A DNA stretch of 64,000 bases, taken from NCBI GenBank assembly GCA_037915935.1, contig JBAIYK010000040.1, positions 410 to 64,409 of the forward strand. Reading direction: 5' to 3'. Below, in pieces: positions 5,835 to 38,160 of the stretch. The notes beneath the pieces were generated by a model, which had not been told where the DNA came from, searched no databases, and saw nothing but the letters and a program-made list of their open reading frames with translations. This stretch comes from Solirubrobacterales bacterium (GTDB lineage Bacteria; Actinomycetota; Thermoleophilia; Solirubrobacterales; Solirubrobacteraceae). Made by a program: the position numbers and the translations under genes. Position 1 is the first letter of the stretch. Each line of letters begins with the position of its first letter.

Positions 5835-5932
5835 GCTACACGCCGGCGATATGGGGGAGGCGCGCGCCGGGCTTGATATTTGGACTCTCCAGCGGTGCGC
5901 AACCTTCGCGGTCGGGATGTGTCCTTGCCGTC

Positions 5933-7390: not shown

Positions 7391-7433
7391 GCTGAGGCGA
7401 GGGCGAGCGCATCGGCGCCTACGATGAGGCGCG

Positions 7434-15878: not shown

Positions 15879-16011
15879 GCAGGAGGCGACGGCGGCTCGC
15901 GATCGGCGCCGGACGCGTCTATGATGCGCGCGCTTTGAGGGTAACGTGGGTGCTCTGCCCTTCGGGGGCGACGGCGATCCACGCACACCGATCCAAGAAG
16001 GGAGAGCTGTG

Positions 16012-16158
16012 ATGCAGACGGCGACGCTCGAGAGCCTCGACCACGAATTCGAAGAGGAGGACTGGGAAGAGGACGACGAGGAGCTTCCTGGCACCGACGA
16101 AGAGGAGCTCGACTTCGACGAGCTCGAAGAAGAGGAAGCCGACGCCGAGGATCTATAG
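16012..16158 (+). CDS. Small, extremely acidic protein (48 aa)
   Basis: ATG preceded by GGGAGAG. Sequence: MQTATLESLDHEFEEEDWEEDDEELPGTDEEELDFDELEEEEADAEDL. Supported by coding potential only. Confidence 0.35.
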   Translation: MQTATLESLDHEFEEEDWEEDDEELPGTDEEELDFDELEEEEADAEDL

Positions 16159-16185
16159 GTCGGCCTTCGGCCTTCGTGCCGCCTG

Positions 16186-16300
16186 CTGTGAAGGTCCGCC
16201 CGCGCCTCGCACGGCCTACTGAAGGCTCTCCTGAAGGCCGCCCTCGCCTTGCGCGTCCCACTGAAGGCCGCCTGCGCGTAGCGCGGCCTACTGAAGGCCC
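16186..16300. repeat. Degenerate 30-bp tandem repeat (CTGAAGGCC core at 16231, 16261, 16291; variants at 16189 and 16219)
   Basis: Read directly. The core recurs at an exact 30-nt period and overlaps the 3-prime end of the minus-strand gene 16288..16560. Confidence 0.8.
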
Positions 16301-16560
16301 TCGCGCGCCTCGCGCACGAGCGTGACGGCCTCTGGGAACACGACCGCGATCACCGAACGGATCTGTTCCGCCTGTGCCTCGGCGTTTCCCTGGAGGTTGA
16401 CGCGGTTCACCGCTGCGACGGTCATGTCGACCGCGAGCTTGATCGCGTTGTCCGCCCAGGCGAGCCGCTGCTGGCCCTGCATCTGCTCAGCGAACTCGGC
16501 AAGGCGCCGCTGAAGCTCCTCAGGGTCTCCGAACAGGTCGCCGAGGCCGCCGCTCTCCAT
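16288..16560 (-). CDS. Hypothetical helical protein (90 aa)
   Basis: Inner ATG (MESGGLGDLFGDPEELQRRLAEFAEQMQ...). No recognisable family. Ends ...REAREGLQ-TAG. Confidence 0.45.
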   Translation of the reverse strand: MESGGLGDLFGDPEELQRRLAEFAEQMQGQQRLAWADNAIKLAVDMTVAAVNRVNLQGNAEAQAEQIRSVIAVVFPEAVTLVREAREGLQ

Positions 16561-16585
16561 GCCGCCATCATAGACTCTGGGTCGC

Positions 16586-17662
16586 ATGCCCCTGCAAGGC
16601 AAGAGCGATACGCAGTCGCGCAACGGACGGAGCGGCGAGGTCGCCGAGCAGCTCGCCTGGGAGGGGGGGCGCCGCGCCCAGCTCGGCGTGCCCGCAATCG
16701 CGGGAGGCTTCCTCTACCTGATCGGCGCGGTGATCATCGGCTCGGCCCTGAGCAAAGCGCCGACCGTCGGGCTGCTGCAGGCGATATCGCCCGCGCTGAA
16801 GGGCGAAGGGACGCCGAGGGAAAGCCCTCGTGTCGCGGAGGTGCGCTACATCAGCCACCACGCGTTCGCGTTGATCGCCGGCAGCGCGCTGACGACGCTC
16901 GCCCTGCTCGCGCTCACCGCCGTGCTCGTCCTGCTCGTGCGCGCGACGCGGTTCAGGCGACCTGAGTCCTGGCAGGCGACGGGTTCGCTCGTGCTGATCG
17001 GCGGGATCGGCTTCGCGGCGGTCGCGATCGGCCACTGGGTCGTCACGGCGATCCTCGCGCATGACTTCGCGACTGGCCACGACTTCAGCAATCGCGCCGT
17101 CGACAGGGCGCTGAGCACGAGCACGGCAAAAGTCGTGATCGACTACATCTCGCTGCTCGCCGGCCTCTCGCTCCTCGTCGGCATGATCTCCGCCTCGCTC
17201 GGCGCGATGCGCGCCGGCCTGCTCACGAGGTGGATGAACGTCCTCGGAATCTTCGCGGCGCTCCTCATCGTCCTGCCGATCGGCGGCGAGACGCTGACCG
17301 TGATTCCCGCGTTCTGGCTCGCGGCGATGGGCCTGCTCTACATGGGCCGCTGGCCCGGACAGGAGCCGCCCGCCTGGGCGGCCGGCGAGGCGCGGCCGTG
17401 GCCGAGCCAGGCGGAGCTGAGGGCGCAGCAGCGGGCTGCGGCGGCAGATGGCGCCTCAGCGGCTTCCGGCGGCGGACCGGCGTCTGGCGGCGACTCGGCG
17501 TCCGGCGGCGAAGCGGACGATGGCGAGCAGAAGCAGCTCGCAGGCGTCGAGGAGGAACAGCCCGCCACGGCCGAGAACGGCGCCGTTGTCGCGCCGGCGG
17601 AGAGCCTCGTGCCCACTCCGAGCAGATCGCGCCGGCGGCGCAAGCGCGGCTCTCGGCGCTAG
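16586..17662 (+). CDS. Hypothetical polytopic membrane protein with low-complexity Ala/Gly/Ser C-terminal tail
   Basis: 358-aa ORF with about 6 hydrophobic segments. No family recognised. Confidence 0.5.
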   Translation: MPLQGKSDTQSRNGRSGEVAEQLAWEGGRRAQLGVPAIAGGFLYLIGAVIIGSALSKAPTVGLLQAISPALKGEGTPRESPRVAEVRYISHHAFALIAGSALTTLALLALTAVLVLLVRATRFRRPESWQATGSLVLIGGIGFAAVAIGHWVVTAILAHDFATGHDFSNRAVDRALSTSTAKVVIDYISLLAGLSLLVGMISASLGAMRAGLLTRWMNVLGIFAALLIVLPIGGETLTVIPAFWLAAMGLLYMGRWPGQEPPAWAAGEARPWPSQAELRAQQRAAAADGASAASGGGPASGGDSASGGEADDGEQKQLAGVEEEQPATAENGAVVAPAESLVPTPSRSRRRRKRGSRR

Positions 17663-17910
17663 GCCATCGCCGAGCTGTTCGCGACGACATGCGTCGCTGA
17701 GGGCGGGTCGCTGTGCGTAGTTCCGCGCAGGCGATCTGCACGTCCGCCCGATGAATGCGAACCCGTCAGCGGGGAATAATCGCAGTGGAATATGTGTGTA
17801 TCGCTACAAGCGATCTACGAAGCGGCCGCCGCTGCAGGCGGATGCCGCCCGCGTTCCATCGCAAGCATCTCTACGGCCGGGCGACGCAGCACGGCCTGAA
17901 GGAGGGTTCC

Positions 17911-18642
17911 ATGGAGGCTGCATCGATCCATCCTCATCCCGCTCAGGGCGAAGCGATCCGCAGGACGCCCGCCGAGCCGGGGCCCGGAGAGCCGCTGAGA
18001 GCGGCGGTCTGGAAGCCGGCCGACCCCGCTCCGCTCGGCCTCGCAGGCTTCGCGATGACGACGTTCGTGCTCTCGATGTTCAACGCGAACCTCGTCGACA
18101 TCAAGGGCCTGCCGGTCGTGCTCGGCCTGACGCTCGCCTACGGCGGCCTTGCGCAGCTGCTCGCGGGCATGTGGGAGTTCCGCACGGGCAACACCTTCGG
18201 CGCGGTCGCGTTCACGTCCTATGGCGCGTTCTGGCTCTCGTTCTGGGCGCTGGAGGTGTTCTACGCGAAAAGCATCGGCGGCAACGTCGGCCACGCAATC
18301 GGCCTGTATCTGTGGGCGTGGGCGATCTTCACCGCCTACATGACGGTCGCCTCCCTGAAAGTGAGCGCCGCCGTCGCGCTCGTGTTCGTGCTGCTGACCG
18401 CGACGTACATCCTGCTCGCGATCGGCGCGACCGGCGGGCACGAAACCGTCACGCACTGGGGCGGCTACATCGGCATCGCGACCGCCGCCGCCGCCTGGTA
18501 CGCGTCGTTTGCCGCGGTGACGAACGCGACCTTCGGCAGGACGATCCTGCCGACGATCCCGCTGCAGGCCGGGGTGGTGCGCGAAGCCGGCCCAGCACGC
18601 GAAGCCGGCCCAGCACGCGAAGCCGGCCCGGCGCGCCGTTGA
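17911..18642 (+). CDS. GPR1/FUN34/YaaH-family acetate/succinate transporter (SatP-like)
   Basis: ATG after GAAGGAGGG. NPAPLGLAGFAMTTFVLS and GNTFGAVAFTSYGAFWLSFW match the family signature. It sits directly upstream of acs. Confidence 0.85.
   Translation: MEAASIHPHPAQGEAIRRTPAEPGPGEPLRAAVWKPADPAPLGLAGFAMTTFVLSMFNANLVDIKGLPVVLGLTLAYGGLAQLLAGMWEFRTGNTFGAVAFTSYGAFWLSFWALEVFYAKSIGGNVGHAIGLYLWAWAIFTAYMTVASLKVSAAVALVFVLLTATYILLAIGATGGHETVTHWGGYIGIATAAAAWYASFAAVTNATFGRTILPTIPLQAGVVREAGPAREAGPAREAGPARR
18581..18634 (+). repeat. 18-bp tandem repeat x3 (GCGAAGCCGGCCCAGCAC) encoding (REAGPA)3 at the SatP C-terminus
   Basis: Copies at 18581-18598, 18599-16 and 18617-34. The third copy has 2 mismatches. 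Confidence 0.9.
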
Positions 18643-18807
18643 GGAGGAGCTTCCCGACGGCCGGGAGAGTCGCGGAGGGCGTGGCCGGTGAAGGCGAGGC
18701 CGCGCCCCCGCGGCGTGTCCGCGGCCAGCGAATGTGCGGAAGCGAGGGGATGTTGCATGATGTGGGCGTGAGGAGCGCCCGGGCTTTCCAATCGAATGAG
18801 GTGAAGG

Positions 18808-20802
<1,995 letters not shown>

Positions 20803-20851
20803 GCGTAGGCGCATGTCGCGGGCCGGCGCTCGCTGGTCGGCTCGCGGCTCC

Positions 20852-21721
20852 CTAGACCTTGCGATGCTGGGCAATCCAGGACCCGTCGGCCTCGCGGCTG
20901 AAGTCCTGGAAGAGCCCTGGCGCCTCGGCGAGCATGATCTCCGCGACCTCGTCGAAGACGAGCCGCAGCTCCTCCTCGGCGCCGGCCGCGGTGCGCATCT
21001 CGATCACGTGCCGCAGCGTCCTGACGTTTGCGGTCCAGACGATGTCCGTCGAGAGGCCGATCGGCGCGAGCCGGCGCAGCGCGGAGGTGACCTCCTTCTT
21101 GACGTGGAAGGGCACGCCCTCCTCCTCGATGCCAAGCTCGCTCGCCGCCTCCCGCTGGAACTCCTCGAGCTGCTCCACGATCGAGAGCACGCGTTGGCGC
21201 AGGGGCTCTAGCGCCGGGGGCACGCGGAAGCCGATGTCCGTGAGCCTCACGTAGCGCAGGCTCTCCTGGCTGAACGCGGAGCCGGCCCTGTGCCTCACGA
21301 GCTCGTGGGTGAAAGTCCGTGAGACGTTGCGCAGCGCGAACGAGTAGTTCGCGTGCTCGAGCACGCTGCCGTGGGCGCTTCTCAGGATGTTCGCGAAGTA
21401 CTCGTGCTGGTCGGTCCTGATCTTCGTGACGTTCGGATTGAGGCCCGGCTCCCAGCTGCGGTAGCAGGCTCTGCCGGCGAACTCGACGAGCAGCTCGCCC
21501 GAGTTGACCTCCTGCGCCCGAGTCGCTCCCGACGTATGAGCCTCGGCTGGTGCTCGCCCCTTGCGCTGCGTCTCAGCCTCGGCTTGCGCCTCGACCCGGC
21601 CCGCCTCGGTGCGCATCCTCAGCCAGGACTCGCCGCCGACGTCGGTGAGGTAGGCGCGCAGACCGTCGAGGTCGACCGCGGGGCGGGCGATGAGGAAGAC
21701 GGATGGCTTTGTCTCGTGCAT
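20852..21721 (-). CDS. thyX: FAD-dependent thymidylate synthase ThyX
   Basis: ThyX motif HELVRHRAGSAFSQESLRY (RHRxxxxxxxS) plus LVEFAGRACY. Confidence 0.9.
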   Translation of the reverse strand: MHETKPSVFLIARPAVDLDGLRAYLTDVGGESWLRMRTEAGRVEAQAEAETQRKGRAPAEAHTSGATRAQEVNSGELLVEFAGRACYRSWEPGLNPNVTKIRTDQHEYFANILRSAHGSVLEHANYSFALRNVSRTFTHELVRHRAGSAFSQESLRYVRLTDIGFRVPPALEPLRQRVLSIVEQLEEFQREAASELGIEEEGVPFHVKKEVTSALRRLAPIGLSTDIVWTANVRTLRHVIEMRTAAGAEEELRLVFDEVAEIMLAEAPGLFQDFSREADGSWIAQHRKV

Positions 21722-21736
21722 CGCGGGTCGCGGATG

Positions 21737-22912
21737 CTAGGGCGGCGCCCGGACGGCGTGCGGCCAGTGTCGTCCGGCGGCGATCCAGAGCTCGAACAGC
21801 GGGTCTACGAGCACGCCGCGGAACGGCCGGCCGTGGTCGCGCAACAGCACGGCCTCGCGCTCCAGTGTCTCGACAGCGCCCTGAACTGCGTCCTTGGTCT
21901 CGTTGTAACGGGCGAGGACGGCGACGGAGAATGGTGAGCCCTCGCGGCGGGCGACGACCTCGGCGACCTTCTGCTGGATCGGGGTGAGCGCATCCCAGCG
22001 AGCATGCATCTCCTCCTCGGTCACATAGCCGGGTAGGCGCGCCAACGCCCGCTCCCAGGCGGCGGCATCGGCGGCTTGGCTCTCCGGCAGCTCCTCCCAC
22101 AGCGCGTGCGCGAGGATCATCGCTGCGCGCGGGTGCCCGCGCGCGAGGTCGAGCAGCGGCTGCAACGCCTCTCCGACATCCCGGTTGCTCGCGGCGAAGC
22201 GGGTCTCGATGTAGCTGCCGAGCGCCGCGCGGGGCAGGGGGATGAGGCTCATCGGGTCGGCTTGGCGGTAGAAGGGGCTGTCGGGGTGCTCGAACAGCTC
22301 GCCGAGCAGGGTGGGCAGTGAGCCGCAGAACAGGTAGCCGACGCTGCTGCCGTGGCGCTGTGTGACGCTGCGGATCACCGCGTCCAGTCCCCCAGGTCGC
22401 GGCCGGCCACGGCGGTCGCGCTCGGCGCCGCCGGCGCGCAGCACCTCCTGGAACTCGTCGTAACAAACGATCACTGGCCCTGTGGTGGCGAGCTGTCCGG
22501 GGAGGTCGAGCGCGTCGAGCAGGCGCCGCTCGGCGTCCTCCGGGCCGAGCTGCGCGCCGCCGAGCCCCGCGGGAAGTTGCATCCCGCCGCCGCGACGCGC
22601 AAGCTTCGCCTTCGCCTTCGCCCAAGCGCCGCTCGCTCCGCTCAGCTCGCGCTCGAACGCCTCCTCGATCCGGCTGCACAGCGTCATCCGGCTCGTCACC
22701 CCGTACAGGTCGACCCGCACAGCGAGTGCCCCGTCCTCGCGCGCCCGTGCGAGCGCGGCCTCGGCGAGAGTCGTCTTGCCGTAGCCGCGGGGCGCCGCGA
22801 GGCGCACGCGGCCGCCTTCCGCCATCCGCCGGGCCAGCAGCGTCAGCTCCTCCTCGCGGTCGATCAGCTCAGAGACGGTTGCGTGGAAGCGGTGGGTGAA
22901 CGGGTTCCGCAT
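21737..22912 (-). CDS. P-loop ATPase of the Arch_ATPase (PF01637-like) type
   Basis: N-terminus FTHRFHATVSELIDREEEL followed by Walker A APRGYGKTTL and Walker B-like VIVCYDEFQ. 391 aa. Confidence 0.7.
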   Translation of the reverse strand: MRNPFTHRFHATVSELIDREEELTLLARRMAEGGRVRLAAPRGYGKTTLAEAALARAREDGALAVRVDLYGVTSRMTLCSRIEEAFERELSGASGAWAKAKAKLARRGGGMQLPAGLGGAQLGPEDAERRLLDALDLPGQLATTGPVIVCYDEFQEVLRAGGAERDRRGRPRPGGLDAVIRSVTQRHGSSVGYLFCGSLPTLLGELFEHPDSPFYRQADPMSLIPLPRAALGSYIETRFAASNRDVGEALQPLLDLARGHPRAAMILAHALWEELPESQAADAAAWERALARLPGYVTEEEMHARWDALTPIQQKVAEVVARREGSPFSVAVLARYNETKDAVQGAVETLEREAVLLRDHGRPFRGVLVDPLFELWIAAGRHWPHAVRAPP

Positions 22913-22914
22913 CA

Positions 22915-22954
22915 GTAGGCTACAAGACTACCAGAAGGTAGGGATCTAGCCTAC
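22915..22954 (-). promoter_or_regulatory. 40-nt interrupted inverted repeat abutting the ATPase start codon
   Basis: GTAGGCTA-CAAGA-CTACC AGAA GGTAG-GGATC-TAGCCTAC: stems of 8 and 5 bp around a 5x5 internal loop. Starts 3 nt upstream of the ATG at 22912. No Shine-Dalgarno is visible. Confidence 0.45.
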
Positions 22955-23041
22955 AAGCATGGGGCTCGCCTCGATCGCCTTCCTGTCCGCGCCGCTGTAG
23001 CGCTTGCGGACGACGGGTGAGCTTTCGAGCCCCGAACGCGA

Positions 23042-23467
23042 TCAGCTCGAGGGCCGCAGCGGCCCATCAGGGTGAGGTGTCGTCAGAGGATCGGCATGCC
23101 GACTGACGATCTTCCACCCACCGCTGTCCAGACGAAACGTAGTCGTGACGCGCAGATCGAATGGCGCCAGTTCGTTGCGAGCGCCCACCTTGGTCTCCCA
23201 ATGCTCCTGCTCGAACAGCGCCACGAGGTCAGCGCCGGAGTAGCACGCGATCGCTTCGAATCGGACAGGCTTACCATCGCGGAAGTTCGACGATGCGAAG
23301 TCGAGCGCTTTGGAGACCGCCGTCCAGCCGCGCGACACGCCGCCGAACGGATTCGCCAACAACACATCCTCACTTCGTCCGTAGAGCGCCTTGATCGGCG
23401 CCGGATCACCGATCGCAAACGCGTCACACGCCGAGTGGTACTGCTCGATGACCTGCGCGATGTCCAT
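23042..23467 (-). CDS. SnoaL-like / NTF2-fold protein (DUF4440-like)
   Basis: Inner ATG (MDIAQVIEQYHSACDAFAIGDPAPIKALY...). The length and pattern fit small NTF2-like proteins. Confidence 0.55.
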   Translation of the reverse strand: MDIAQVIEQYHSACDAFAIGDPAPIKALYGRSEDVLLANPFGGVSRGWTAVSKALDFASSNFRDGKPVRFEAIACYSGADLVALFEQEHWETKVGARNELAPFDLRVTTTFRLDSGGWKIVSRHADPLTTPHPDGPLRPSS

Positions 23468-23623
23468 GCTCTGCGCTCCCCTGTTGCGTACCGTACCGGA
23501 CAGGCGTCCGGCGGGCCAGAGCCGGGTCCGATTCCAGACTCTGGACACTGCGCTCCGGATATCTGCTTGGCGTCTATGGCGTCTGTCTCACGCGGGGACG
23601 CTACACCCTCGCGTTTGCGCTGA

Positions 23624-24077
23624 AAGGACACTGACTATGGCGACCCACCTGCCAGCGTGCTCGTCGGCGAGCTGCTGCGCAAACGAGGCCGAGAGCTGTT
23701 CCTGCATCCAGCCCTGCATGTCGTCGTCGCCGGAGGACCAATGGAACGAGACCGAGCACGAGCTGACGCGCAGGCTCGACATCATGCAGAGCACACGACG
23801 CCTCACGCCTGACGGACGGCGCGTGCTGGAGCAGGCGACGCGCACCATGATCGACACTCAGGCCGTCGAGATCGTCGGTCCCGAGATGTACGCGGGCTTT
23901 GAGAAGGCAGCGCGGCGGCGGGTGCCCCGCGACCCGAAGGACTGGCCCGTAGTGGCCCTCGCGCTCCTGCTTGACGCCGCGATCCTCACTGGAGACAACG
24001 ACTTCCTCGGCTGCGGCTGCCAACCTGGACCGTTTGAGATCCTGCGAGGCCAACTCGAGGGCTCTGACCCTACATGA
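23624..24077 (+). pseudogene. PIN-domain (PIN_2-like) gene remnant, frameshifted near 23720-23735
   Basis: The C-terminal half in one frame (PRDPKDWPVVALALLLDAAILTGDNDFLGCG) fits a PIN C-terminus. The N-terminal-like part (DTDYGDPPASVLVGELLRKRGRELFLHPALHVVVA) lies in another frame and is preceded by an in-frame TGA. Confidence 0.45.
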
Positions 24078-24199
24078 CCCGCGAGGCGAGAACCCGAAGG
24101 CAGACCTTGCGTGGCTGCCGGATGCCAGCGCCGTTCTGGAGTCGCCGCGGCGAGCGGCGGCCCCGAGCTGGGGCGCCACACTGCTATGCAGGCCAGGAG

Positions 24200-24812
24200 G
24201 GGACGACTTGCTCCAGCGGCCCGAGGCCGCAAATAGAAGCAAATCGGGTCCTCCCGCGCGCCCTTGTGCTTTCGCATCTCGTCCAAAGCAGGCACCCGCC
24301 GAGGGCTGATAGAGACGCGTGCTCTGCTCACGCAAAGCAGAAATGCGAACCTGCCCGGGCCAGTCCGCGCGAGGCTCCCACAGTTCGGCCTCCGCGACCG
24401 CCAAGGCCAAAGCCGAAGCACGTCCCGCAGGTGCTCCTCGACGAAGCGGCCCGTCGCCTGAGTCGCGATCGCGACCCACACTTCCCTCGCCGGGCGCGAT
24501 GACGTGCAGACGAGAATCGACCAGCCTGCCGAACGAGACTGCGACATTGCGGCCTCGATGATCGAAGGCTTCGGCGAAGATGGGGGCGATCGAGTCGGGC
24601 GTCGTCGATGATGCGTTGCACTCGAGCGCGTCGCGGAGCCGGTCGTCGTTATCGGGCAGGAGCCGTCCCGCTCGATGTAGCGCAACGAAGAGCTCGTAGG
24701 CGTCCTTGCTGGAGCCCTCCTCGCGCTGCGCGCTGACGCAGAGCCAGAACCGTCCAGCATCGGCCTCCAGCCACGTCGCACCACGCCACCGTCCGTGGCG
24801 CAGCCGGTACAC
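24200..24812 (-). pseudogene. Unknown gene, probably frameshifted near 24480
   Basis: A protein-like N-terminus (MYRLRHGRWRGATWLEADAGRFWLCVSAQREEGSSKDAYELFVALHRAGRLLPDNDDRLRD) runs to about HVIAPGEG. Protein-like sequence then continues in another frame (EVWVAIATQATGRFVEEHLRDVL). The lower boundary is approximate. Confidence 0.3.
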
Positions 24813-24944
24813 CAGGGGACACTCGTTTGACAGGACGCGCTTCTGTCCGCGCGGGGGCCGTGTCCACTGTTCGGATCATAGACAGGTACAGAGGCGTGAC
24901 TCACTGACCGGGAGAGTTTGACTGTGGTGACTGATCTCGTGGGC

Positions 24945-24957
24945 TAAACTACGGGCG
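24945..24957 (+). promoter_or_regulatory. Candidate -10 (TAAACT, 24945-24950) placed 6 nt before the GTG start: possible leaderless transcript
   Basis: Spacing was read directly. There is no Shine-Dalgarno and no convincing -35. Confidence 0.3.
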
Positions 24958-25997
24958 TGGCCGACTCGGCTCTCTACTTTCCATACATCGAAGTGCCGGA
25001 AGATGTCTCGGTGTTGCGGGTCTTGCTGTACTGGGACACCCTTGGCGCGATCACCCCGAACGGGATACGGACCGGGCCATGGACCGACGAACTCGTAAAG
25101 GCAGAGCTGGTCAAGCCAATACGTCCCGGAGAGCATGTCAGCTCGTCGATCGTATTGCAAGATCTCGAAGAGTTGCTAGACGCCACGCCAGCGGAACGGT
25201 CACCAGCAGCACCGTTCTTCATCCACAAGGAGAAGACTAACTTGGACGTGGTCGAGTTGCTCGATGAACGAGGACTCGTGGCATCCTCTCCCCCCGCGAG
25301 TCATCGAGGTCGGTACTCCGGCGACTGGATTGCGGTCGAGGGAAATGCGGCCGCGTTGTATATGGCATATCTCGCGCTTCGTATATCGCAAAAGCATAAG
25401 CTCAAAATGGAGCCCATTACAGATCAAGCTCGCTATTTCGAAGCTGTAAGCGGGACGGGGAGTCTCTCGACTATCGCATCACTCGACCATCTGCGAGGAG
25501 CGGTACTACGAGGGGTGCTCCCGGCTCCCACCAAGTCGGTCTCGTTGAAGAAGCTGGTCAAGTTCAAGGAAAAGAATCGATCGTTGCTGCAGGCATTGAG
25601 GCGTGAGGTCGAGGCTCACGTTGTGACCTGTGCCCAGGAGGGCGATCCCGAATTGCGCAGACGGCTCGCCGAAGGTTTCTCGACGGACCTAGTGGAACGA
25701 GCGGAAGAGGCTCGTCGGCGGATGGATGAGAGCCGGTGGCCCACCGCGCAAGGGGTCGTTTGCGGGTTGCTCGAAGGTTCGCCGGGATTCGCGACAGGTC
25801 TGGCGATGAAATCGGTCGGCGTTGCGGCAACAGGCGCGGCGCCGATCTTGATCGACTGGATCAAGAGTCGGTCCCCCCGAGTGAACAGTGACATGCCAGC
25901 CACGTACGCGGTGCTTGCACATGACCATTTTGACGAAACGGCGACTAGCCGCGCGCGCCGCCCACGGCTCAAGGGGACTCTCGGGCGGCGACTGTAG
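24957..25997 (+). CDS. Hypothetical protein, 346 aa, no assignable family (gene 1 of candidate module)
   Basis: GTG start; clean ORF in a lower-GC segment with ordinary amino-acid composition (YFPYIEVPEDVSVLRVLLYWDTLGAITPNG..., KKLVKFKEKNRSLLQALRREVEAHV...). The C-terminal segment is Gly/Ala-rich and hydrophobic. Confidence 0.6.
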   Translation: MADSALYFPYIEVPEDVSVLRVLLYWDTLGAITPNGIRTGPWTDELVKAELVKPIRPGEHVSSSIVLQDLEELLDATPAERSPAAPFFIHKEKTNLDVVELLDERGLVASSPPASHRGRYSGDWIAVEGNAAALYMAYLALRISQKHKLKMEPITDQARYFEAVSGTGSLSTIASLDHLRGAVLRGVLPAPTKSVSLKKLVKFKEKNRSLLQALRREVEAHVVTCAQEGDPELRRRLAEGFSTDLVERAEEARRRMDESRWPTAQGVVCGLLEGSPGFATGLAMKSVGVAATGAAPILIDWIKSRSPRVNSDMPATYAVLAHDHFDETATSRARRPRLKGTLGRRL

Positions 25998-26143
25998 GGA
26001 TTAGCATAGGATGACTGAGGGCACCGGGTCTGGCGGAAGAGCGTGTGAGGGGGAACCCTGGGGTCTGTTGGCGGAGGCGAGTCGTGTCGTCATCGGGGCG
26101 GGTCGCGGCCGGCCTTCCACGCATCGAAACGCAGGTATGATCG

Positions 26144-27337
26144 GTGCCGATGAAGCCGGACACGCATATTCACCTGGGCCGCCAACGAAGCTCTAAACCG
26201 GTGGGAATATCCTCCAGCGGTCGCCAGGGCATGGACAATGATCGCATGCCACCAATTCCCTACCTAGATATACGCAATGAGCAGATGAGGGCTTTGGCGC
26301 ATGCGCTTGTCGATGGCGAGGAGCGCCACCTTGTTCTCTACGGCGCACCAGGGTCTGGGAAGACGAGCCTTGCTCGTATGTTCGCTCACCGCTACGAGCA
26401 TCACTTCACCGGCGGCAGTTACTTCCTCGACGTTTCGCTCTACTCACCGCTGACCATAGCGGTGCTCGGAACCATCAATCCGCGTCGGCCAGGGCTACTC
26501 GTGCTGGATGCAGTAGAGCACACGCCAATGGATGCGCTCACCGATTTCTTTGGCTTTCTTGCCGGGAACTATCCGCAGACACGACTCCTGATGACCTCCC
26601 GCGTCAAGCTCTTACCGACTCCGCAGACGACGGCGGTCGAGATGCCGCCGCTGACAGTCGCACAGGTTCTTGAACTGCTGCGCGCCGGCTTTAGCGGCGA
26701 TCCTGGCCGACTCGACGTATTGGTCGATCGGCTCGCCGGCAACGCGGCTGCCGTGGGGCTGATCTCCCAGCGCCTCGCTGCTGGGATGCCACCCGAGCGC
26801 ATTCTAGAATGGATCGAAGACCGCGCGCTGCCCGTGGCGAGAGATGCTACCGGCAAACCGCTAGGCGAGCAGGCTTCGCAGCGCCGCGAGTTCGACATTG
26901 CCATGACCGAGGTCAGCGACGAGCTGATCCAGCACCTCGTCGACCATCCCGAGCTGCTCTACGAGCTCGATCCCAGGAAGTTCGAGCAGCTCGTCGCGGA
27001 GCTCTACCGTCGCCGAGGATATGAGGCAACGCTGACCCCCGCCTCCGGTGACCAGGGGGTCGATGTCTACGTCGTCTCGCGCGATGGCATCGGCGAGACG
27101 CTCTGGGTCGTCCAGGCAAAGCGCTGGGCGGCTCACCGCAGGGTGGGCGCGGGCGTGGTTCGCGAACTCTACGGAACCATCGACATGGCGAACGCGAGCG
27201 CCGGCATCCTGCTGACCACGTCCTTCTTCGAGCCCGGTGCTCGCGCGATCGAGCGAGACCTGCGCTACCGCGTCAAGCTTGAGGACTATCTCAGCCTGCA
27301 GCAGATGCTGCGCGAGCCCGTCAACCGTAAGGGATAA
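26144..27337 (+). CDS. P-loop (NB-ARC/STAND-like) NTPase fused to a C-terminal Mrr_cat PD-(D/E)xK nuclease (gene 2 of candidate module)
   Basis: Walker A GAPGSGKT (26342-26365), Walker B GLLVLDAVEH, then TRLLMTSR. Mrr-type nuclease at about 26957-27298: FEQLVAELYRRRGYEATLTPASGDQGVDVYV...LWVVQAKRW...GILLTTSFFEPGA. Alternative starts at ATG 26150 and ATG 26231. Confidence 0.8.
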   Translation: MPMKPDTHIHLGRQRSSKPVGISSSGRQGMDNDRMPPIPYLDIRNEQMRALAHALVDGEERHLVLYGAPGSGKTSLARMFAHRYEHHFTGGSYFLDVSLYSPLTIAVLGTINPRRPGLLVLDAVEHTPMDALTDFFGFLAGNYPQTRLLMTSRVKLLPTPQTTAVEMPPLTVAQVLELLRAGFSGDPGRLDVLVDRLAGNAAAVGLISQRLAAGMPPERILEWIEDRALPVARDATGKPLGEQASQRREFDIAMTEVSDELIQHLVDHPELLYELDPRKFEQLVAELYRRRGYEATLTPASGDQGVDVYVVSRDGIGETLWVVQAKRWAAHRRVGAGVVRELYGTIDMANASAGILLTTSFFEPGARAIERDLRYRVKLEDYLSLQQMLREPVNRKG

Positions 27338-27551
27338 TGTGCGCACCGGCCATGAATGCATGTCCGGACACGATCACAGCTCGATCGTGGGCCTGTCCAC
27401 CTCCACCACTTGGGATCGGAAAGCGCATGCAGCGCTTGGAGGATGCGCTTGCTTGCAAGGTGCCAGCTATGCCCCCCGCCAACGCTGATCGCGAACGCAA
27501 TCGCCCCACGCGGTCATGGCCGGCTTACATACGCGACGATCCTGGGTACGC

Positions 27552-28220
27552 TCATTGGCATGTCGGTAGCTGCCTGGTCGCCAGCGGCCGACGGCCGGTA
27601 CTCTTTGTGATCGAGTAGCCAATCGCCTGACTGGACGACGGGACCCTGAGGGGCACCCCGTTTACGATCATTGTTACTGAGCTGTTGCCAAGAGTGATCG
27701 CAAAGCGCTTGGCGCGGTACACCTGGGTTGTGGAACCGGGCTGCAGTATTTTGCCTGGGATCAACTTGCGTCCGTTATCGCCAATCAGGCAAACGTATGC
27801 GTCGGTGGAGGCGCGCAGCGACAGGGTGACATCTGCGGCCGGAGATTTGGTGCGAGGCGAGGGTGGTGCTTCGTCTTGAGAAGACGGCATTGACTCTTTG
27901 AGAGGCTTCTCGGTGGCGCTAGTGCCAGATTTTTTAAGGGCGATATGCGGAGAGCTTGCGTTGGTAGATGGTCGCGTGCTTGAGGAGTTAGAGTGGAGAA
28001 TGTGTTCCAACGCGAGTACGACACCTCCTATCGCCAGAATGGCGGCTGCAAATGCCCCGACCGCGAGGACTCCGCGGTTGAATCCGGTAAGCAAAGCCCA
28101 GATCTGGACACGCAAGCTCGTGATGCGGCTGGTCTGTGCTGGTTTTGGGAGTGGTACCGCAGGAGGTTTGCGATCAGCGTTTGGGCTGCCAGATGAGGGC
28201 TCGTTCTTAGGGTCGGTCAT
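27552..28220 (-). CDS. Single-pass membrane protein with C-terminal RodZ_C (DUF4115)-like domain and no HTH
   Basis: 222 aa: Pro/Lys-rich N-terminus, TM segment (VLAVGAFAAAILAIGGVVLAL), Ser/Pro linker, then VTLSLRASTDAYVCLIGDNGRKLIPGKILQPGSTTQVYRAKRFAITLGNSSVTMIVNGVPL, matching the DUF4115 pattern. Confidence 0.6.
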   Translation of the reverse strand: MTDPKNEPSSGSPNADRKPPAVPLPKPAQTSRITSLRVQIWALLTGFNRGVLAVGAFAAAILAIGGVVLALEHILHSNSSSTRPSTNASSPHIALKKSGTSATEKPLKESMPSSQDEAPPSPRTKSPAADVTLSLRASTDAYVCLIGDNGRKLIPGKILQPGSTTQVYRAKRFAITLGNSSVTMIVNGVPLRVPSSSQAIGYSITKSTGRRPLATRQLPTCQ

Positions 28221-28502
28221 CGTGGGTTAGTTTCGTGCTACCTCGACAGTCCGCGCTCGGAGCGCGGCCAAATGTGCGCTCCCACCTCGAGGCGATCGGC
28301 GAGCGGACGTTGGCGGGGGGTCATCTTAGATCCTACGCCAGCGCTCACTTCTGCTCCGTGCGAAAGGGAGGCACCCGGCGAGCGGCGGCGATACTTTCGC
28401 GTTGACGAGCGGTGGTGGTCTCGGCGACGCTCTGCGCGTTGCCGTTTCGGCAGGGCGAAGCGGGAGCCCCAAGTCGGCCCCCGCATTCGCTGACTGGTCT
28501 TT

Positions 28503-29204
28503 TCAGAACTGTAGGCCGGCGCTGGCGGGCATCATCGGCGCTCGGCGTGAGCTCACGGCCGCGATGATCTCCTCTGTGTCGATTCCCTGTAGGTAGATGG
28601 AGGTCGTCCCGAGGTTGACGTGCCCGAGCTGGCGCTGGATGATGTTCAGCGGCACTCCTTCGCGTGCGAGCTCGACCGCGTGGGCATGGCGTAGCTGGTG
28701 CGGAGCGAACCGCCGCCGAACCCCGGCTTGCGCAGCGAGGCGACGAAGCTCGCTGCGTACCGCAGCACTCGACCACGGCCGGCCGCATGTCGGTCCGTCG
28801 ATCACGCAGAACATCGGCCCAACCGGCAGCTCGACGCGCACGGTGAGCCAGGGCCGCATCTGCTCCCAGCCCCAAGCATCCATCCCGATCTCGCGGCGCC
28901 GCCCGCCCTTGCCATTGCGCACAAGCAGCGAGCTACGTTGCGGGTCCAGGTCGCGTTCGCTCAGAGCGAGCGCCTCCTGAATACGCAGCCCGCCACGCCA
29001 GAGCACGACTATCAGCGCACGCAGACGAGCGCCGTGGCGGCTGGTGCCGGCCTCGCGCATCACCGCGATGATCTCCTGCACCGCGGGCGGGTCGGCCGGG
29101 TAGCGTAGCCCCTTATTGCGAGGCGGTCGTCCAGCGTGGTAGCCGGGCATCGCCGCTGGCGAGCGCCGACGCCCAGCAGAATCAAGGAGAGTCGAGACGG
29201 TCAT
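28503..29204 (-). CDS. Tyrosine recombinase/integrase, catalytic domain only (233 aa)
   Basis: RBS GGGAGGAGG upstream. Catalytic residues in GLRIQEAL (R), GKGGRRR (K), HQLRHAH (HxxR), LGH, and SIYL (Y). No N-terminal core-binding domain. Confidence 0.9.
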   Translation of the reverse strand: MTVSTLLDSAGRRRSPAAMPGYHAGRPPRNKGLRYPADPPAVQEIIAVMREAGTSRHGARLRALIVVLWRGGLRIQEALALSERDLDPQRSSLLVRNGKGGRRREIGMDAWGWEQMRPWLTVRVELPVGPMFCVIDGPTCGRPWSSAAVRSELRRLAAQAGVRRRFAPHQLRHAHAVELAREGVPLNIIQRQLGHVNLGTTSIYLQGIDTEEIIAAVSSRRAPMMPASAGLQF

Positions 29205-29310
29205 GGGAATCCTCCTCCCATCGCGGATCGATAGACCCCACTGCTCTACCAGCTCCCTCGCGAGGCCCAGGCGCCTCAGGAGGCCACGTCAGCGGTGCGA
29301 TGGACGCTAT

Positions 29311-29892
29311 CTATCGCTTCCGGGCTGGCTTGTCCTGGGGCGGACTGAAGCCAATCGGGCGCTTGGGCTTCGCGGGCGGCGAGATCAACTGACGCAGCGC
29401 CTTGAAGATCGCGTCGAGCTGTTCGTCGTGGCGGCCGAGCTTGGTCGTGGTCTCGCGCTCGAGGTCATCCAGTCGCCGCTCGAACGCCGCGTAGGAGGCG
29501 GCAACGCGCCGCAGCTCGACGAACGCACGCATGATCGCGATATTGACGGCGACCGCGCGCTCGCTACGGAGCACGCTCGAAAGCATCGCTACGCCTTGCT
29601 CTGTGAACACGTACGGCGCGTAGCGGCGTCCGCCGCGTCCGGCGTTTGACATCACAGATTGTGATCTCAAAGCGGCAGCCTCGTCCTTGCTGAGCCGGAA
29701 CATGAAGTCTGGGGGGAATCGCTCGCGATTGCGCGCGACCTGCTGGACCAAGCTGCGAGTTTCGACGCCGTACAGGCGAGCGAGGTCTTCGTCGAGCATC
29801 ACGTGGCGGTCGCGAACGAGGAGGATGTGCTGCTTGATAGCCGGGATCGGGATCAGCTCCACCGAGCTCGGCTGCTTGGACCGGTCCGCCAT
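29311..29892 (-). CDS. ORF6N (KilA-N-related) DNA-binding domain protein
   Basis: VMLDEDLARLYGVETRSLVQQVARNRERFPPDFMFRLSKDE...LRSQSVMS..GGRRYAPYVFTEQGVAMLSSVLRSERAV is the ORF6N signature. Co-oriented upstream of the integrase. Confidence 0.8.
   Translation of the reverse strand: MADRSKQPSSVELIPIPAIKQHILLVRDRHVMLDEDLARLYGVETRSLVQQVARNRERFPPDFMFRLSKDEAAALRSQSVMSNAGRGGRRYAPYVFTEQGVAMLSSVLRSERAVAVNIAIMRAFVELRRVAASYAAFERRLDDLERETTTKLGRHDEQLDAIFKALRQLISPPAKPKRPIGFSPPQDKPARKR
29645..29673. repeat. 29-bp repeat copy 1 containing a 27-bp near-palindrome (TTTGACATCACAGATTGTGATCTCAAA), inside the ORF6N gene
   Basis: Read directly. 12-nt arms with one mismatch around a 3-nt centre. Encodes the conserved LRSQSVMS. 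Confidence 0.85.
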
Positions 29893-29932
29893 CGCCGGCA
29901 GGGTGCCACAGGCAGCGGACACGCTCCTGGTC

Positions 29933-29961
29933 TTTGAGATCACAGATTGCGATCTCAAAGC
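29933..29961. repeat. 29-bp repeat copy 2 (TTTGAGATCACAGATTGCGATCTCAAA), 41-69 nt upstream of the ORF6N ATG
   Basis: 2 mismatches to copy 1. Direct orientation, exactly 288 bp away. Confidence 0.85.
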
Positions 29962-31045: not shown

Positions 31046-32233
31046 TTACGAAGCGGTGGCGGGCGGGACCACGTACCGCCTGAGGTCTACCACACCGGCG
31101 ATCCCTGAATGGCGCCTCGGCCTCACACCGCCCGGCGGGGAGGGCGGATCAGGGTGAACCCGAGCCACCGTGCGAACACCAGTGTCGCCAAGTGACGAGA
31201 GGTCGTCAAGCGACCAGAGGTTGTCATCAGTCCCGAACTGATGCCATTTGACCCCAACGATGATAGGCGTCTCCTCCGCGTACGCCTCAGGCTTTGGGTA
31301 CCGGTCGTCAGGACGTACACCCCCCTCCAACCGCAGCTCCGAAGTGGCGTCACCTTCAGTCGCACGAAGCATCAGCTCAACGGTGCATTCCAACTCCCGG
31401 TAGAACCGTTTCCGCATGACCTCGCGCATGTTGCGCGCGTCGTGGACGTAGACGGCCCATCCGCAGAAATCGATCGGCTCGTCACCGAGTGGAATGATGA
31501 CCTCAGGCTCTCCTCCTGACCGAGGAGGGCCAAGGGCCGGGGATGCGCATCGGATGCCCGCCACTCCAAGGGCTTGTCTGCTGCCTTGAATTGCGACGGC
31601 GAGTGCGAGCGCAGCCTCCATCTCCGGCCGTCGGCGCGAACGTATTAAGGAGACCGCCGCGTCCCATTGGCTCGGGTAGGTTAGCTTCATATTCGTACTC
31701 CCAAGAAAACGCTGTACCGGATTCAATAGCCTCATTTGCTCGGGCACCACTTCATCGCTCGTTGGGTCGAGGGAGTCTCGCGCTTCTGCCAAGCCACAGA
31801 GAGCGGCATTTCGCGCCTGAATCCATGCCTTTTCGGCAGCATCGGGCTCTTGGCTCAATAGCCAGGTGATTCCGAGGTGCCACTCGGCTGAGGCACGCTT
31901 TATGGCGCTCGGCGCACCAACGGAGGCCTCGATAAACTGCTCTCGAGCTCCCCGGACAAGGGCCTCGCGATGCGATCGCTCGCGACACACCGAGAGCGCA
32001 TCCTCAAGCATGCGCAGTCCGGCGCGGAGGTGTTGCTCAAACAGAACAGCATCGACCTTTTCCTCGACGCGCTCGATCATCCTGAGCGTCTGGTCTTGCC
32101 CGACCAGCGCCGCCTGGAGAAGTTGAAGACTGACCGCGGCCCACTCTTCCTCAGACGGCGCTTGGCCCGCGGCGATGGAGGTGAGAATCCTCTGAAAACC
32201 GCTGGTTGCGAGGATCGCCGCAAGTTGGATCAT
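31046..32233 (-). CDS. Hypothetical two-domain protein, 395 aa, no assignable family
   Basis: Clean ORF in a lower-GC segment. The N-terminal half is helical and the C-terminal half is beta-rich (EVIIPLGDEPIDFCGWAVYVHDARNM...IIVGVKWHQFGTDDNLWSLDDL). Confidence 0.55.
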   Translation of the reverse strand: MIQLAAILATSGFQRILTSIAAGQAPSEEEWAAVSLQLLQAALVGQDQTLRMIERVEEKVDAVLFEQHLRAGLRMLEDALSVCRERSHREALVRGAREQFIEASVGAPSAIKRASAEWHLGITWLLSQEPDAAEKAWIQARNAALCGLAEARDSLDPTSDEVVPEQMRLLNPVQRFLGSTNMKLTYPSQWDAAVSLIRSRRRPEMEAALALAVAIQGSRQALGVAGIRCASPALGPPRSGGEPEVIIPLGDEPIDFCGWAVYVHDARNMREVMRKRFYRELECTVELMLRATEGDATSELRLEGGVRPDDRYPKPEAYAEETPIIVGVKWHQFGTDDNLWSLDDLSSLGDTGVRTVARVHPDPPSPPGGVRPRRHSGIAGVVDLRRYVVPPATAS

Positions 32234-36318: not shown

Positions 36319-38160
36319 CTAGTTGTGTGCTACCCATACTGTCTCTGCGTGACCCGAGTCGACACTATTGTCGGTCCACACACTGAATGTCGTCCCATTG
36401 CTGTCCTCCGCGACACCGTTGTAGTCGCCGAACCGGCACGCAAAGGATCCACAGAACGGCGACAGAAACGTCAGCTCGGTTGACGGGCTTGCAGGTGCTT
36501 GCTGTGGGCTAAGCACGCTTGTCGCCGGTCCAGTGGTCCGAGCCAGTTGATACAGCAACCCTGACCCGTTGATCCCCGAGTTCGCGTAGAAGCCGTAGAT
36601 GACCTTCCCGTCAGTTCCCCAGGCCAGCGATGGCTGCGTGGCTGCGCTCTGCACCGTACTCGCCGCGCCCCAGCCACCGCCGGAGTTCACCGTCTGCTGA
36701 ATATTGTCGGCGCCGGCTGGGTTATCCTCCCAGACCGCGATGACGCGACCGTCGCCTGACGGGGATGCCTGGATGTAGACACGCTTGCCCGGATGGAAGA
36801 CCTTGCCGGTGTTCGTGTCACTGCCGCGCTTTGCGCCGAGCGAGGTAACATTGGTGAAGCTGGCTGCACCATTGTCGGAATAGGCGGCAAACGCCTGGTT
36901 GACCGATGGGTCGGGCTGGTTCTTGGACCCGTACGGCGCGCCGTCCCACCACGCTGCCCACACCCTTCCCGATGGTGCTACCGATAGCGTGCACCCCTGA
37001 GGGGTCTGCTGGTGGGTTCCAGCGCTGGCGCTCGATCGGTTGACGATGTACGGCAACGGACCACCAGGAGGAGCGTTGATGCCGAGCTTGGCGACCCGCA
37101 CACCGGTCCCGTCCCCGGCGAAAAATGTATAGCACATGTACACGCTGCCGCCGTTTGGGTCCGCTGCGAGATACTCCTGGTCCGGACTGGCGGCGCCTCT
37201 GCTGCCATGCACAAGAATACTCGATGGGCCGAACGTTAGTCCTTTGGAGCTGTCGGAACCGATGGCGGCGTACACCTGGGAGGCCACGCCGGTGCCGTCA
37301 TCGTCCGCATTGGCCATGCAGCCGAAGAACAGCGTACCGTTCGGCATAAACGCTAGCGACGGATCGCCCGCGCCGCTGACATGTGGCGCGTTCGGCAGTG
37401 CGAGGTCGTTCATCCCCGACCAGTGCAGGCCGCCGTCTGAACTCGTTACATATGAGCAATGCAAAGACTGCGTGCCGGTGACGGCGTTGCGGGTCGCGTG
37501 GTTGAACGCAACGACGATATTGTTCGCGTTGGTAGGGTTGACCGCGACCACAGGCTCGGCTGCTCCTTCACCAACCAACTGGGTGGCTAGCCCTGGGGTC
37601 GGGGAGATATCAAACGGCGGGACCGTCGACAGGGCTTCCTCAAGCGAGAAATATGTGTGGGCGCCAGGAGCCAGGGGCGGGTTGAATGTGACCAAGCCGT
37701 CGGAAGGGCCGCTGACGGTGAACGACACCCCGGGACCGGCGTAGCCGGTCGAGTCGAACGGGCAGCCGCTCACCGTTCCGAACTGGCACAGGCCGTCGCC
37801 GTCAAACGAGAACAGCGCCTTGCCTGTCTGCGAGGACACGGGCAACGACGAGACTGGGGAGGAAGAGTCGTTCTGTACTCCGATGAGCGTGTCCTCAATA
37901 CCATCAAACGGCCCCTGTGTCGGGTCGCCCGCCACCGATGGCGTGCCCGACGGGTCAATGTAAATCAGTAGAGCGCAGCTCGTGTCGGCACCGATGGCCG
38001 GGCACTGCGGAAACGGCGCCACTGGCACCGCTGCGCCCGCGCTCTGCGTTACGGCCCCGACCATCGCGACGCTTAGCGCGACGACCATCACCAGTCTTTG
38101 CAAGCTAACCCCCTTGATTGTATCCCGTACCCTAGTCAGGTAGACAGAACTGTACCGCAT
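36319..38160 (-). CDS. Secreted BNR/Asp-box beta-propeller (sialidase-like) protein carrying the same N-terminal module as the GH5
   Basis: Asp-box-like SSDGGLHWS and YSDNGASF-type repeats. A likely signal peptide appears if translation starts at TTG 38103 (after AAGGGGG). The N-terminal module lies at about 37590-38028. Confidence 0.75.
   Translation of the reverse strand: MRYSSVYLTRVRDTIKGVSLQRLVMVVALSVAMVGAVTQSAGAAVPVAPFPQCPAIGADTSCALLIYIDPSGTPSVAGDPTQGPFDGIEDTLIGVQNDSSSPVSSLPVSSQTGKALFSFDGDGLCQFGTVSGCPFDSTGYAGPGVSFTVSGPSDGLVTFNPPLAPGAHTYFSLEEALSTVPPFDISPTPGLATQLVGEGAAEPVVAVNPTNANNIVVAFNHATRNAVTGTQSLHCSYVTSSDGGLHWSGMNDLALPNAPHVSGAGDPSLAFMPNGTLFFGCMANADDDGTGVASQVYAAIGSDSSKGLTFGPSSILVHGSRGAASPDQEYLAADPNGGSVYMCYTFFAGDGTGVRVAKLGINAPPGGPLPYIVNRSSASAGTHQQTPQGCTLSVAPSGRVWAAWWDGAPYGSKNQPDPSVNQAFAAYSDNGAASFTNVTSLGAKRGSDTNTGKVFHPGKRVYIQASPSGDGRVIAVWEDNPAGADNIQQTVNSGGGWGAASTVQSAATQPSLAWGTDGKVIYGFYANSGINGSGLLYQLARTTGPATSVLSPQQAPASPSTELTFLSPFCGSFACRFGDYNGVAEDSNGTTFSVWTDNSVDSGHAETVWVAHN

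Follow-up and report, generated by a model that had tools for sequence, protein, structure and literature searches.

A 64,000-nucleotide stretch of a Solirubrobacterales genome (assembly GCA_037915935.1, contig JBAIYK010000040.1, positions 410 to 64,409; hereafter the window) carries two adjacent genes on its forward strand: gene 1, which encodes an intact DUF6236 protein, and gene 2, which encodes a compact protein with an N-terminal P-loop NTPase and a C-terminal Mrr-type nuclease. The two genes are best explained as unrelated, independently mobile single-gene cargo lying side by side by chance in a low-GC, integrase-bearing island. Gene 2 encodes a sensor-less form of the STAND plus Mrr nuclease combination, approximately 365 aa long and with its effector at the C-terminus. 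In our favoured overall reading, to which we assign a probability of about 0.6, the genes are unrelated cargo and the gene 2 product is a stand-alone STAND-Mrr protein that would work as an ATP-gated DNA endonuclease. A preliminary description of this DNA had proposed a candidate two-gene conflict or defence module; its account of gene 2 as a minimal NB-ARC-like NTPase fused to an Mrr nuclease stands, while the pairing with gene 1 does not.

Domain architecture of gene 2

The longest open reading frame (ORF) of gene 2 spans 26144-27337 (+), opens with a GTG at 26144 and encodes at most 397 aa, in keeping with the size of under 400 aa given in the preliminary description. The most likely start, judged from alignment, is the ATG at 26231, because the 53 close relatives (33-68% identity, covering about 88% of the long ORF) are about 365 aa long and align from there; the start codon is uncertain, and its ribosome-binding context is weak. 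The features of gene 2, including its nucleotide-binding domain (NBD), are located in the window as follows.

26231-27337 (+): gene 2, 368 aa from ATG 26231; sensor-less NBD-HD1 plus Mrr_cat
26342-26365 (+): Walker A, GAPGSGKT; its lysine is K44 counted from 26231 and K73 counted from 26144
26495-26521 (+): Walker B, LLVLDAVEH, with Ala at the second acidic position
26585-26602 (+): LLMTSR strand, the hhhTSR element of STAND NTPases; matched in alignment by VLVTSR of P0271, a protein with NB-ARC and TPR domains
26657-26818 (+): four-helix, HD1/ARC1-like lid; model helices 143-196
26738-26755 (+): GNAAAV, counterpart of the GxP/"LPLAV" motif; aligned by hhalign to nLPLAV of P0271
26819-26959 (+): conserved linker, located where STAND proteins have their winged-helix domain and sensor; structure predicted with low confidence
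26960-27310 (+): Mrr_cat PD-(D/E)xK nuclease domain; E252, D278 (27062-27064) and Q295-A-K297 (27113-27121) intact

All of the motifs that had been quoted for gene 2 were found and are conserved in the family (GAPGSGKT, LLVLDAVEH, LLMTSR, PPLTVAQVLELL, GDQGVDVYV, VVQAKRW and ILLTTSFF), with a family consensus of G-x-x-G-x-GK for Walker A followed by LLVLDExDR, hhTS(R/N), EMPPL and GNAxAV. Among 39 family sequences, the Walker A glycines G38, G41 and G43 (G67, G70 and G72 in the numbering of the long ORF) are invariant and K44 is nearly so. The second acidic position of Walker B is E or D in 37 of the 39, the exceptions being the window copy, which has the sole Ala, and P0002, which has Ser. 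The last residue of the LLMTSR strand varies in the family (N in 14 members, R in 11), and the arginine of TSR is thus not conserved. Within the lid, G170 is invariant and N171 nearly invariant, and most members have Ala in place of the Pro of the GxP-type motif, which is kept as GNP in P0032 and P0035 and as GHP in P0047.

The predicted C-terminal nuclease proved to be a full domain, with a match to Pfam Mrr_cat (PF04471) at 3e-27 (95.5 bits against a cutoff of 21) over model positions 2-115 of 115, corresponding to residues 273-389 of the long ORF. Residues E252, D274, D278 and K297 (numbered from 26231) are invariant and Q295 nearly invariant in the same 39 sequences, and from these residues the nuclease is apparently catalytically intact and active. 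The protein aligns with the family from end to end at full length, scoring 537 bits against the family profile.

An AlphaFold2 model (pLDDT 74) contains an N-terminal helix, a five-stranded P-loop core, the four-helix lid, a linker of about 30 residues (pLDDT about 50 for residues ~200-229) and the Mrr fold. Pfam matches to P-loop families at the N-terminus are weak and centred on Walker A, with AAA_16 just above its cutoff. The Pfam scan detected no repeat domains and no Mrr_N or other DNA-reader domain, and the model places the linker alone between HD1 and Mrr, which bears out the earlier remark that gene 2 has no sensor or repeat domain.

Parts of this architecture were also recovered in other combinations. 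Four proteins (P0048-P0051) carry the same linker and Mrr_cat module fused to sigma-70 region 2/4 domains, with no NTPase, from which it follows that the C-terminal module is shuffled among N-terminal domains. Conversely, in the 442-aa protein P0191 the NBD-HD1 module follows a CdiI_2 immunity-protein domain at the N-terminus and no Mrr domain is present; here the minimal STAND module is combined with a further output or input.

The N-terminal module is of the NB-ARC type

By profile comparison, the N-terminal module of gene 2 is assigned as an NB-ARC-type STAND NBD with HD1 (ARC1), without the ARC2 winged helix and without a sensor, in agreement with the NB-ARC-like STAND call made from its motifs. 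With a profile of the 200-residue module, the nearest proteins outside the family carry Pfam NB-ARC (11 of 21), nSTAND1/3, NACHT, BTAD or GerE domains. In an exhaustive search of a library of 1.84 billion representative proteins, the long proteins that match the whole module are of the SARP/AfsR, MalT/LuxR, cyclase-NB-ARC-TPR and NB-ARC-TPR types. Aligned by hhalign with P0271, which carries Pfam NB-ARC over model positions 2-247 of 248, the module reaches 98.8% probability (E = 5.5e-17, 183 columns), with the GRE helix, Walker A, FPGG, hhhhD, hhTSR, PPL and GNAxAV/LPLAV motifs in register.

The NBD carries the Walker A, Walker B and hhhTSR elements of STAND NB-ARC/AP-ATPase proteins, the window copy deviating at Walker B (D-A), and the lid corresponds to an HD1/ARC1 helical bundle with a GxP-type motif, given its four helices and the alignment of GNAxAV on LPLAV. 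No winged-helix domain (ARC2) with an MHD-type histidine was found after HD1, and the P0271 alignment stops at the HD1 boundary. Against the Pfam NB-ARC hidden Markov model itself, gene 2 scores 14.4 bits, below the gathering score of 23.5, over the Walker A region only, and a sequence-profile search of the PDB returned only the generic Walker A/B regions of Cdc48/p97.

Homology with the NB-ARC/AP-ATPase regulators (AfsR/SARP, MalT/LuxR, cyclase-NB-ARC-TPR) thus extends over the NBD and HD1, about 185 residues. These regulators continue into a winged-helix domain (WHD) and TPR sensors and have DNA-binding or cyclase outputs, whereas in gene 2 everything after HD1 is replaced and the output is a nuclease.

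Genes 1 and 2 do not form a conserved pair

Both genes were found as forward-strand ORFs in the lowest-GC part of the island, as the preliminary description stated. The elements of gene 1 and of the interval that separates it from gene 2 are listed below.

24868-24956 (+): conserved leader travelling with gene 1; blastn homology sets in 89-98 bp ahead of the gene 1 start codon
24957-25997 (+): gene 1, 346 aa, GTG start; intact DUF6236 protein
25749-25871 (+): Gly/Ala-rich hydrophobic segment (Kyte-Doolittle), gene 1 residues ~265-305; low pLDDT
25998-26230 (no strand): spacer between the genes, ~233 bp; not conserved with relatives of either gene

Gene 1 had been described as lacking any motif that could be placed; it belongs to Pfam DUF6236 (PF19749; 37.5 bits against a gathering cutoff of 26.2). 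The family's N-terminal motif, MxDxALYFPYI...LLYWD, aligns from residue 1 of the GTG-started protein, with Y7, P9 and L23-D27 invariant, which indicates that gene 1 is intact and that a 328-aa public annotation truncates it. The possibility that gene 1 is a decayed fragment was rejected, given its end-to-end alignment with the family. It is an ordinary member in motif and length, with nothing to set it apart, and a separate, intact, independently distributed single-gene unit.

A database search recovered 93 relatives of gene 1, typically 320-350 aa, from Actinomycetota, Nitrospira, Chloroflexi, Acidobacteriota, Syntrophales, cyanobacteria and Paraburkholderia, and a genome scan with the DUF6236 profile yielded nine loci. 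Searches of plasmids and phages with gene 1 returned no occurrence, comparison with PHROGs, PADLOC and NCBIfam added nothing, PDB sequence profiles gave nothing credible, and the literature searched contains no mention of DUF6236. The AlphaFold2 model of gene 1, built from 42 sequences, is confident (pLDDT 78, pTM 0.76) and predicts an alpha/beta N-domain, long C-terminal helices and the low-confidence Gly/Ala-rich hydrophobic segment. Foldseek found no similar fold in the PDB (best E 1.6) or in BFVD (best E 0.25); DUF6236 remains an orphan, its fold predicted with confidence and without a solved relative. In most of the 42 members, the 19-residue Kyte-Doolittle maximum at residues ~265-305 reaches 1.4-2.1, and from its sequence this segment is possibly a membrane-associating hairpin.

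At the nucleotide level, the window matches the 87%-identical relative of gene 1 over 24868-25998, up to the gene 1 stop codon. The upstream leader is shared with three relatives (87.6% identity by blastn in L019 and L020, 84.9% in L021). Homology blocks stop at 25998 (L019) or 26042 (L021) and resume inside gene 2, whose nucleotide homology elsewhere lies within coding sequence only. The spacer has no Rfam match, Rfam and repeat scans in and around it gave nothing relevant, and a promoter and terminator scan of it found no promoter-like or terminator-like site.

For co-occurrence, profiles of both families were run against all ORFs of 38 fetched records. The families occur together only in the window and in L004, a duplicate of the same locus. 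A DUF6236 neighbour was found at none of the nine gene 2-family loci with visible flanks (six independent contexts), and an Mrr or STAND/NTPase neighbour at none of 13 independent DUF6236 loci, which include the gene 1 relatives at 87%, 84%, 52% and 51% identity. The DUF6236 neighbours are mixed (P450, glyoxalase, patatin with DUF6414, ThiF, Fic, IS21 and unknowns), and none recurs across 14 loci. When the ORFs around both families were compared all against all by BLAST, neither family had a recurrent partner outside a lineage-specific housekeeping block.

In one of these neighbourhoods (L025, 2353-10941, from the Actinomycetota metagenome-assembled genome (MAG) contig JBBPIJ010000002.1), genes for a patatin-like phospholipase and a DUF6414 protein lie just upstream of a DUF6236 gene, and a ThiF/E1-like protein is encoded nearby. 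The arrangement resembles a conflict system but does not recur at other DUF6236 loci.

Taken together, it is very unlikely that genes 1 and 2 work jointly in conflict or defence, with gene 1 as the sensor, adaptor or antitoxin-like partner of a two-gene module. The two genes are adjacent and co-oriented with no terminator-like site between them, and both have atypical GC content at third codon positions (GC3; gene 1 0.66, gene 2 0.74, flanking host-like genes about 0.9). Gene 2 has no sensor of its own, and gene 1 belongs to a family of unassigned function with a novel predicted fold. Against these points, the families co-occur at this locus only, which already refutes a conserved DUF6236 plus NTPase-Mrr system by the synteny test that the preliminary description had set, and the closest relatives of each gene (68% and 66% identity for gene 2; 87%, 84%, 52% and 51% for gene 1) lack the other. 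Homology to the gene 1 relatives ends at its stop codon, the genes show no coupling across the spacer, which is not conserved, and gene 2 relatives, where paired at all, are paired with an LmuB-like protein. Nor does the locus resemble a type II toxin-antitoxin (TA) pair, given the 346-aa size of gene 1, the spacer of about 233 bp and the lack of co-occurrence elsewhere. Since DUF6236 is not the missing sensor, attention moves to gene 2 alone, or to gene 2 with a partner such as the LmuB-like protein of Bradyrhizobium.

Extent of the gene 2 family and comparison with known systems

Gene 2 belongs to a sizeable, cross-phylum family. Of the best 150 representatives of the N-terminal module (one per 50%-identity cluster), 100 are at most 470 aa long, and 75 of these 100 also match the linker and Mrr profile and are typically 360-390 aa; the architecture therefore encompasses at least 75 clusters at 50% identity. 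Full-length relatives with 30% identity are found on Bradyrhizobium plasmids, where they are annotated as "restriction endonuclease". A metagenome scan with the gene 2 profile gave 14 loci, mostly Mrr-domain-only relatives, and searches of phages and IMG/VR with gene 2 returned Mrr-domain matches only.

Scans of both proteins against PADLOC, NCBIfam and PHROGs identified no full-length named system. No PADLOC model covers gene 2 over its full length: the PDC-S02, mREase_IV and ZorD matches are confined to the Mrr domain, those of PDC-S02 and mREase_IV lying at residues 243-385 and leaving about 210 N-terminal model positions unmatched. The architecture has no name or description in PADLOC or in the literature searched, where queries for NA-iREase1 and for Mrr_cat with AAA_16 also gave nothing.

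The literature searched places the Mrr-like effectors of STAND defence proteins (bNACHT25, Avs) at the N-terminus and mentions C-terminal STAND effectors only after repeat arrays, which upholds the observation that the order NTPase-then-nuclease is the reverse of Avs-type proteins. Like gene 2, Avs4-type Avs proteins and bNACHT25 combine a STAND NTPase and an Mrr-like PD-(D/E)xK nuclease in one polypeptide, and their activation relies on oligomerisation-induced nuclease activity. They are large proteins with an N-terminal nuclease, a full NBD-HD1-WHD and a big C-terminal TPR or other sensor (often at least 400 aa), whereas gene 2 encodes about 365 aa with a C-terminal nuclease, no WHD and no sensor. 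Its NTPase is closest to AP-ATPase/NB-ARC-type regulators rather than to the NACHT or Avs clades, the tripartite layout of Avs and NLR proteins is absent, and no PADLOC Avs or NLR model matched. With E. coli Mrr and other type IV enzymes (Mrr_N plus Mrr_cat), gene 2 shares a C-terminal Mrr_cat with D...QxK, a single-gene organization and a similar size, but it has a P-loop NBD-HD1 where E. coli Mrr has an N-terminal DNA reader.

Genomic neighbourhoods of gene 2 relatives

The neighbourhoods of gene 2 relatives are summarized as follows.

L001 (68% identity): helix-turn-helix genes upstream, NT/HEPN TA pair downstream
L002 (66% identity): HU upstream, on the opposite strand
L034: integrase and HicAB
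L037: type IIG restriction-modification (R-M) gene
L033, L035 and L036: one conserved housekeeping block
L038 and L039: Bradyrhizobium plasmids NZ_CP064706 and NZ_CP086137

Among the neighbours are TA pairs (HEPN/NT, HicAB), MazF/PrlF, an integrase and a type IIG R-M gene. The TA, R-M and integrase contexts are consistent with the family being defence or accessory cargo.

The two Bradyrhizobium plasmids share a three-gene block (4263-8119 in both L038 and L039) whose flanks differ between the plasmids. It encodes a 64-aa ORF, an 820-aa SMC-like ATPase and, 85 bp downstream, a 372-aa NBD-HD1-Mrr relative with 30% identity to gene 2. The ATPase matches Pfam AAA_23/SMC_N and PADLOC LmuB (4e-20 over nearly the whole model). 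Lamassu combines the SMC ATPase LmuB with an Mrr-type LmuA effector, and the presence of an LmuB-like gene suggests that the block could represent a Lamassu-like system of non-canonical type whose effector is a STAND-Mrr protein. Canonical LmuA has an N-terminal effector and a dedicated LmuB-binding C-terminal domain, unlike the layout of gene 2, and no PADLOC LmuA model was matched. No LmuB-like gene was found by tblastn in the window, or in the other loci, and the island ORFs scanned between 21.7 and 42 kb contain neither an SMC nor an AAA_23 domain. The window locus was accordingly rejected as a Lamassu system, the likeness applying to the Bradyrhizobium relatives only.

Proposed mechanism and alternative readings

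Because gene 2 retains the NBD-HD1 switch, has an intact Mrr centre and is solitary in accessory or defence-type neighbourhoods, we infer that its product acts alone as an ATP-gated DNA endonuclease. Binding of nucleotide to the NBD-HD1 switch would drive self-association of the protein, which would gather the Mrr domains into a dimer or tetramer competent for cleavage, and the assembled nuclease would cut DNA in a restriction-like or abortive-infection-like manner. The trigger would act on the NBD-HD1 and linker or on the nuclease domain, since the protein lacks a dedicated sensor; sensing may fall to another partner in some lineages, such as the LmuB-like SMC ATPase of the Bradyrhizobium plasmids. 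This logic would be analogous to that of the Avs and bNACHT nucleases, minus the dedicated sensor. Loss of the Walker B glutamate in AAA+ and STAND proteins typically blocks hydrolysis rather than binding; by analogy, the window copy, with its D-A Walker B, may bind ATP and hydrolyse it poorly.

In the prevailing view, STAND and NLR immune proteins cannot keep their off state without a large sensor and a winged-helix domain. A broader proposal, which we regard as tentative and rather doubtful, is that the ~365-aa NBD-HD1-Mrr proteins constitute a new class of STAND immune nucleases, reduced to a minimum and free of a repeat sensor, that would detect infection directly through the ATPase switch and linker or through interchangeable partners such as the LmuB-like ATPase. 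If so, the STAND oligomerisation switch would work as a portable module of about 200 residues, and an NBD and HD1 wired straight to a nuclease would show how little STAND machinery regulated killing or restriction needs. At about 365 aa, the protein would be a tractable model.

Several observations weigh against our favoured reading of gene 2 as a stand-alone, ATP-gated STAND nuclease beside an unrelated gene 1. The proposed nuclease and oligomerisation mechanism is deduced from the features of an uncharacterised family. Foldseek comparison of the whole gene 2 model with the PDB ranks AAA+ proteins first (E ~1e-7), and no STAND structure appears among the top 50, so that the NBD-HD1 might, on the model, behave as a conventional AAA+ module; we do not take this ranking against a STAND assignment because sequence profiles are more discriminating. 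Read-through co-transcription of genes 1 and 2 may occur because the spacer has no terminator-like site, and the neighbourhoods inspected number only about 20. A 2026 census of 589 STAND clades (PMC13581612) may already contain the gene 2 clade.

A further counterpoint comes from three loci (L033, 4345-6098; L035, 4296-6050; L036, 4345-6113) in which a gene 2 relative occupies one conserved housekeeping position, 12-66 bp downstream of a gene for a 212-214-aa class I S-adenosylmethionine-dependent methyltransferase (Methyltransf_11/25, UbiE-like). DinB, DsbD, thiolase, SDR and methyltransferase genes lie upstream and DsbA, VKOR, hydrolase, AhpC and PPIase genes downstream. The identical position implies vertical inheritance, an uncommon pattern among defence genes that would suit a housekeeping factor of DNA repair, recombination or regulation, in which an AAA+/STAND switch delivers a structure-specific Mrr/HJR-type nuclease. 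The leading structural neighbours, which are AAA+ base-plus-lid modules (MgsA, RFC/DnaX clamp loader, Cdc6/ORC, Hda and RuvB), and the occurrence of the linker and Mrr module on sigma-70 domains point the same way. We nevertheless consider such a role improbable, given a patchy cross-phylum distribution that includes plasmids, the TA, R-M, integrase or insertion sequence (IS) character of the other contexts, the position of the window gene in a low-GC acquired island, and closest NTPase sequence relatives that are signalling STANDs rather than replication or repair AAA+ proteins.

Equally little weight goes to gene 2 as a modification-dependent, Mrr-like type IV restriction enzyme in which the NTPase takes the place of the N-terminal winged-helix reader and modified DNA is the trigger. 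The strongest full-domain matches are to Mrr_cat, with PADLOC mREase_IV and PDC-S02 on the nuclease domain, the system would be a single gene of Mrr-like size, and relatives are annotated "restriction endonuclease" at source; the matches, however, span the catalytic domain only, Pfam detects neither Mrr_N nor another DNA reader, and nothing points to modification sensing. That the window gene is functionally impaired, or in decay within an island whose cargo is degraded, is likewise unlikely. Its Walker B D-A is unique among the 39 members, the public MAG annotation begins gene 2 after Walker A, the start codon and ribosome-binding context are those described above, and a short integrase and IS elements lie in the same island; these points count in favour of impairment. 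Yet the reading frame is complete and matches the family profile along its whole length at 537 bits, all other invariant residues are kept, including the nuclease catalytic set, and loss of the Walker B glutamate would affect hydrolysis and leave binding in place.

Composition and other genes of the island

The window has a GC content of about 0.70 with a lower-GC stretch from approximately 23 to 38 kb, and its lowest 1-kb bin is 25001-26000 (GC 0.597). The GC3 values of genes 1 and 2 compare with 0.88-0.93 in the flanking host-like genes, and both genes therefore look horizontally acquired. The genes near the locus, listed here, include the integrase and IS context described earlier.

23391-24077: PIN_2 protein
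28503-29204: tyrosine integrase/recombinase, short, 233 aa
29311-29958 (-): ORF6N protein, 215 aa
35388-36203: IS3-type transposase

The same locus is present in the public MAG GCA_036704725.1 (L004, contig JAXAXF0106868155.1), which equals window positions 15011-29486. Its annotation starts gene 2 at Met79 (319 aa), and so without Walker A, and gene 1 at 25011 (328 aa), and so without the conserved N-terminal motif; both gene calls appear too short.

Of ten neighbouring island proteins scanned with PADLOC, one was matched: the ORF6N protein, which corresponds very strongly to the candidate PDC-S05 (1e-56). A 40-nt near-palindrome, TTTGAxATCACAGATTGxGATCTCAAAG, occurs twice at this gene, at 29634-29673 inside it and at 29922-29961 at its 5' end. 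Two large ORFs of the low-GC island, at 31046-32233 (-) and 36319-38160 (-), encode 395 and 613 aa without a Pfam or PADLOC match. At the island edge, a 391-aa P-loop protein (21737-22912, -) with AAA_16/AAA_22 matches below cutoff and a host-like GC3 of 0.88 adjoins thyX and is unrelated to gene 2.

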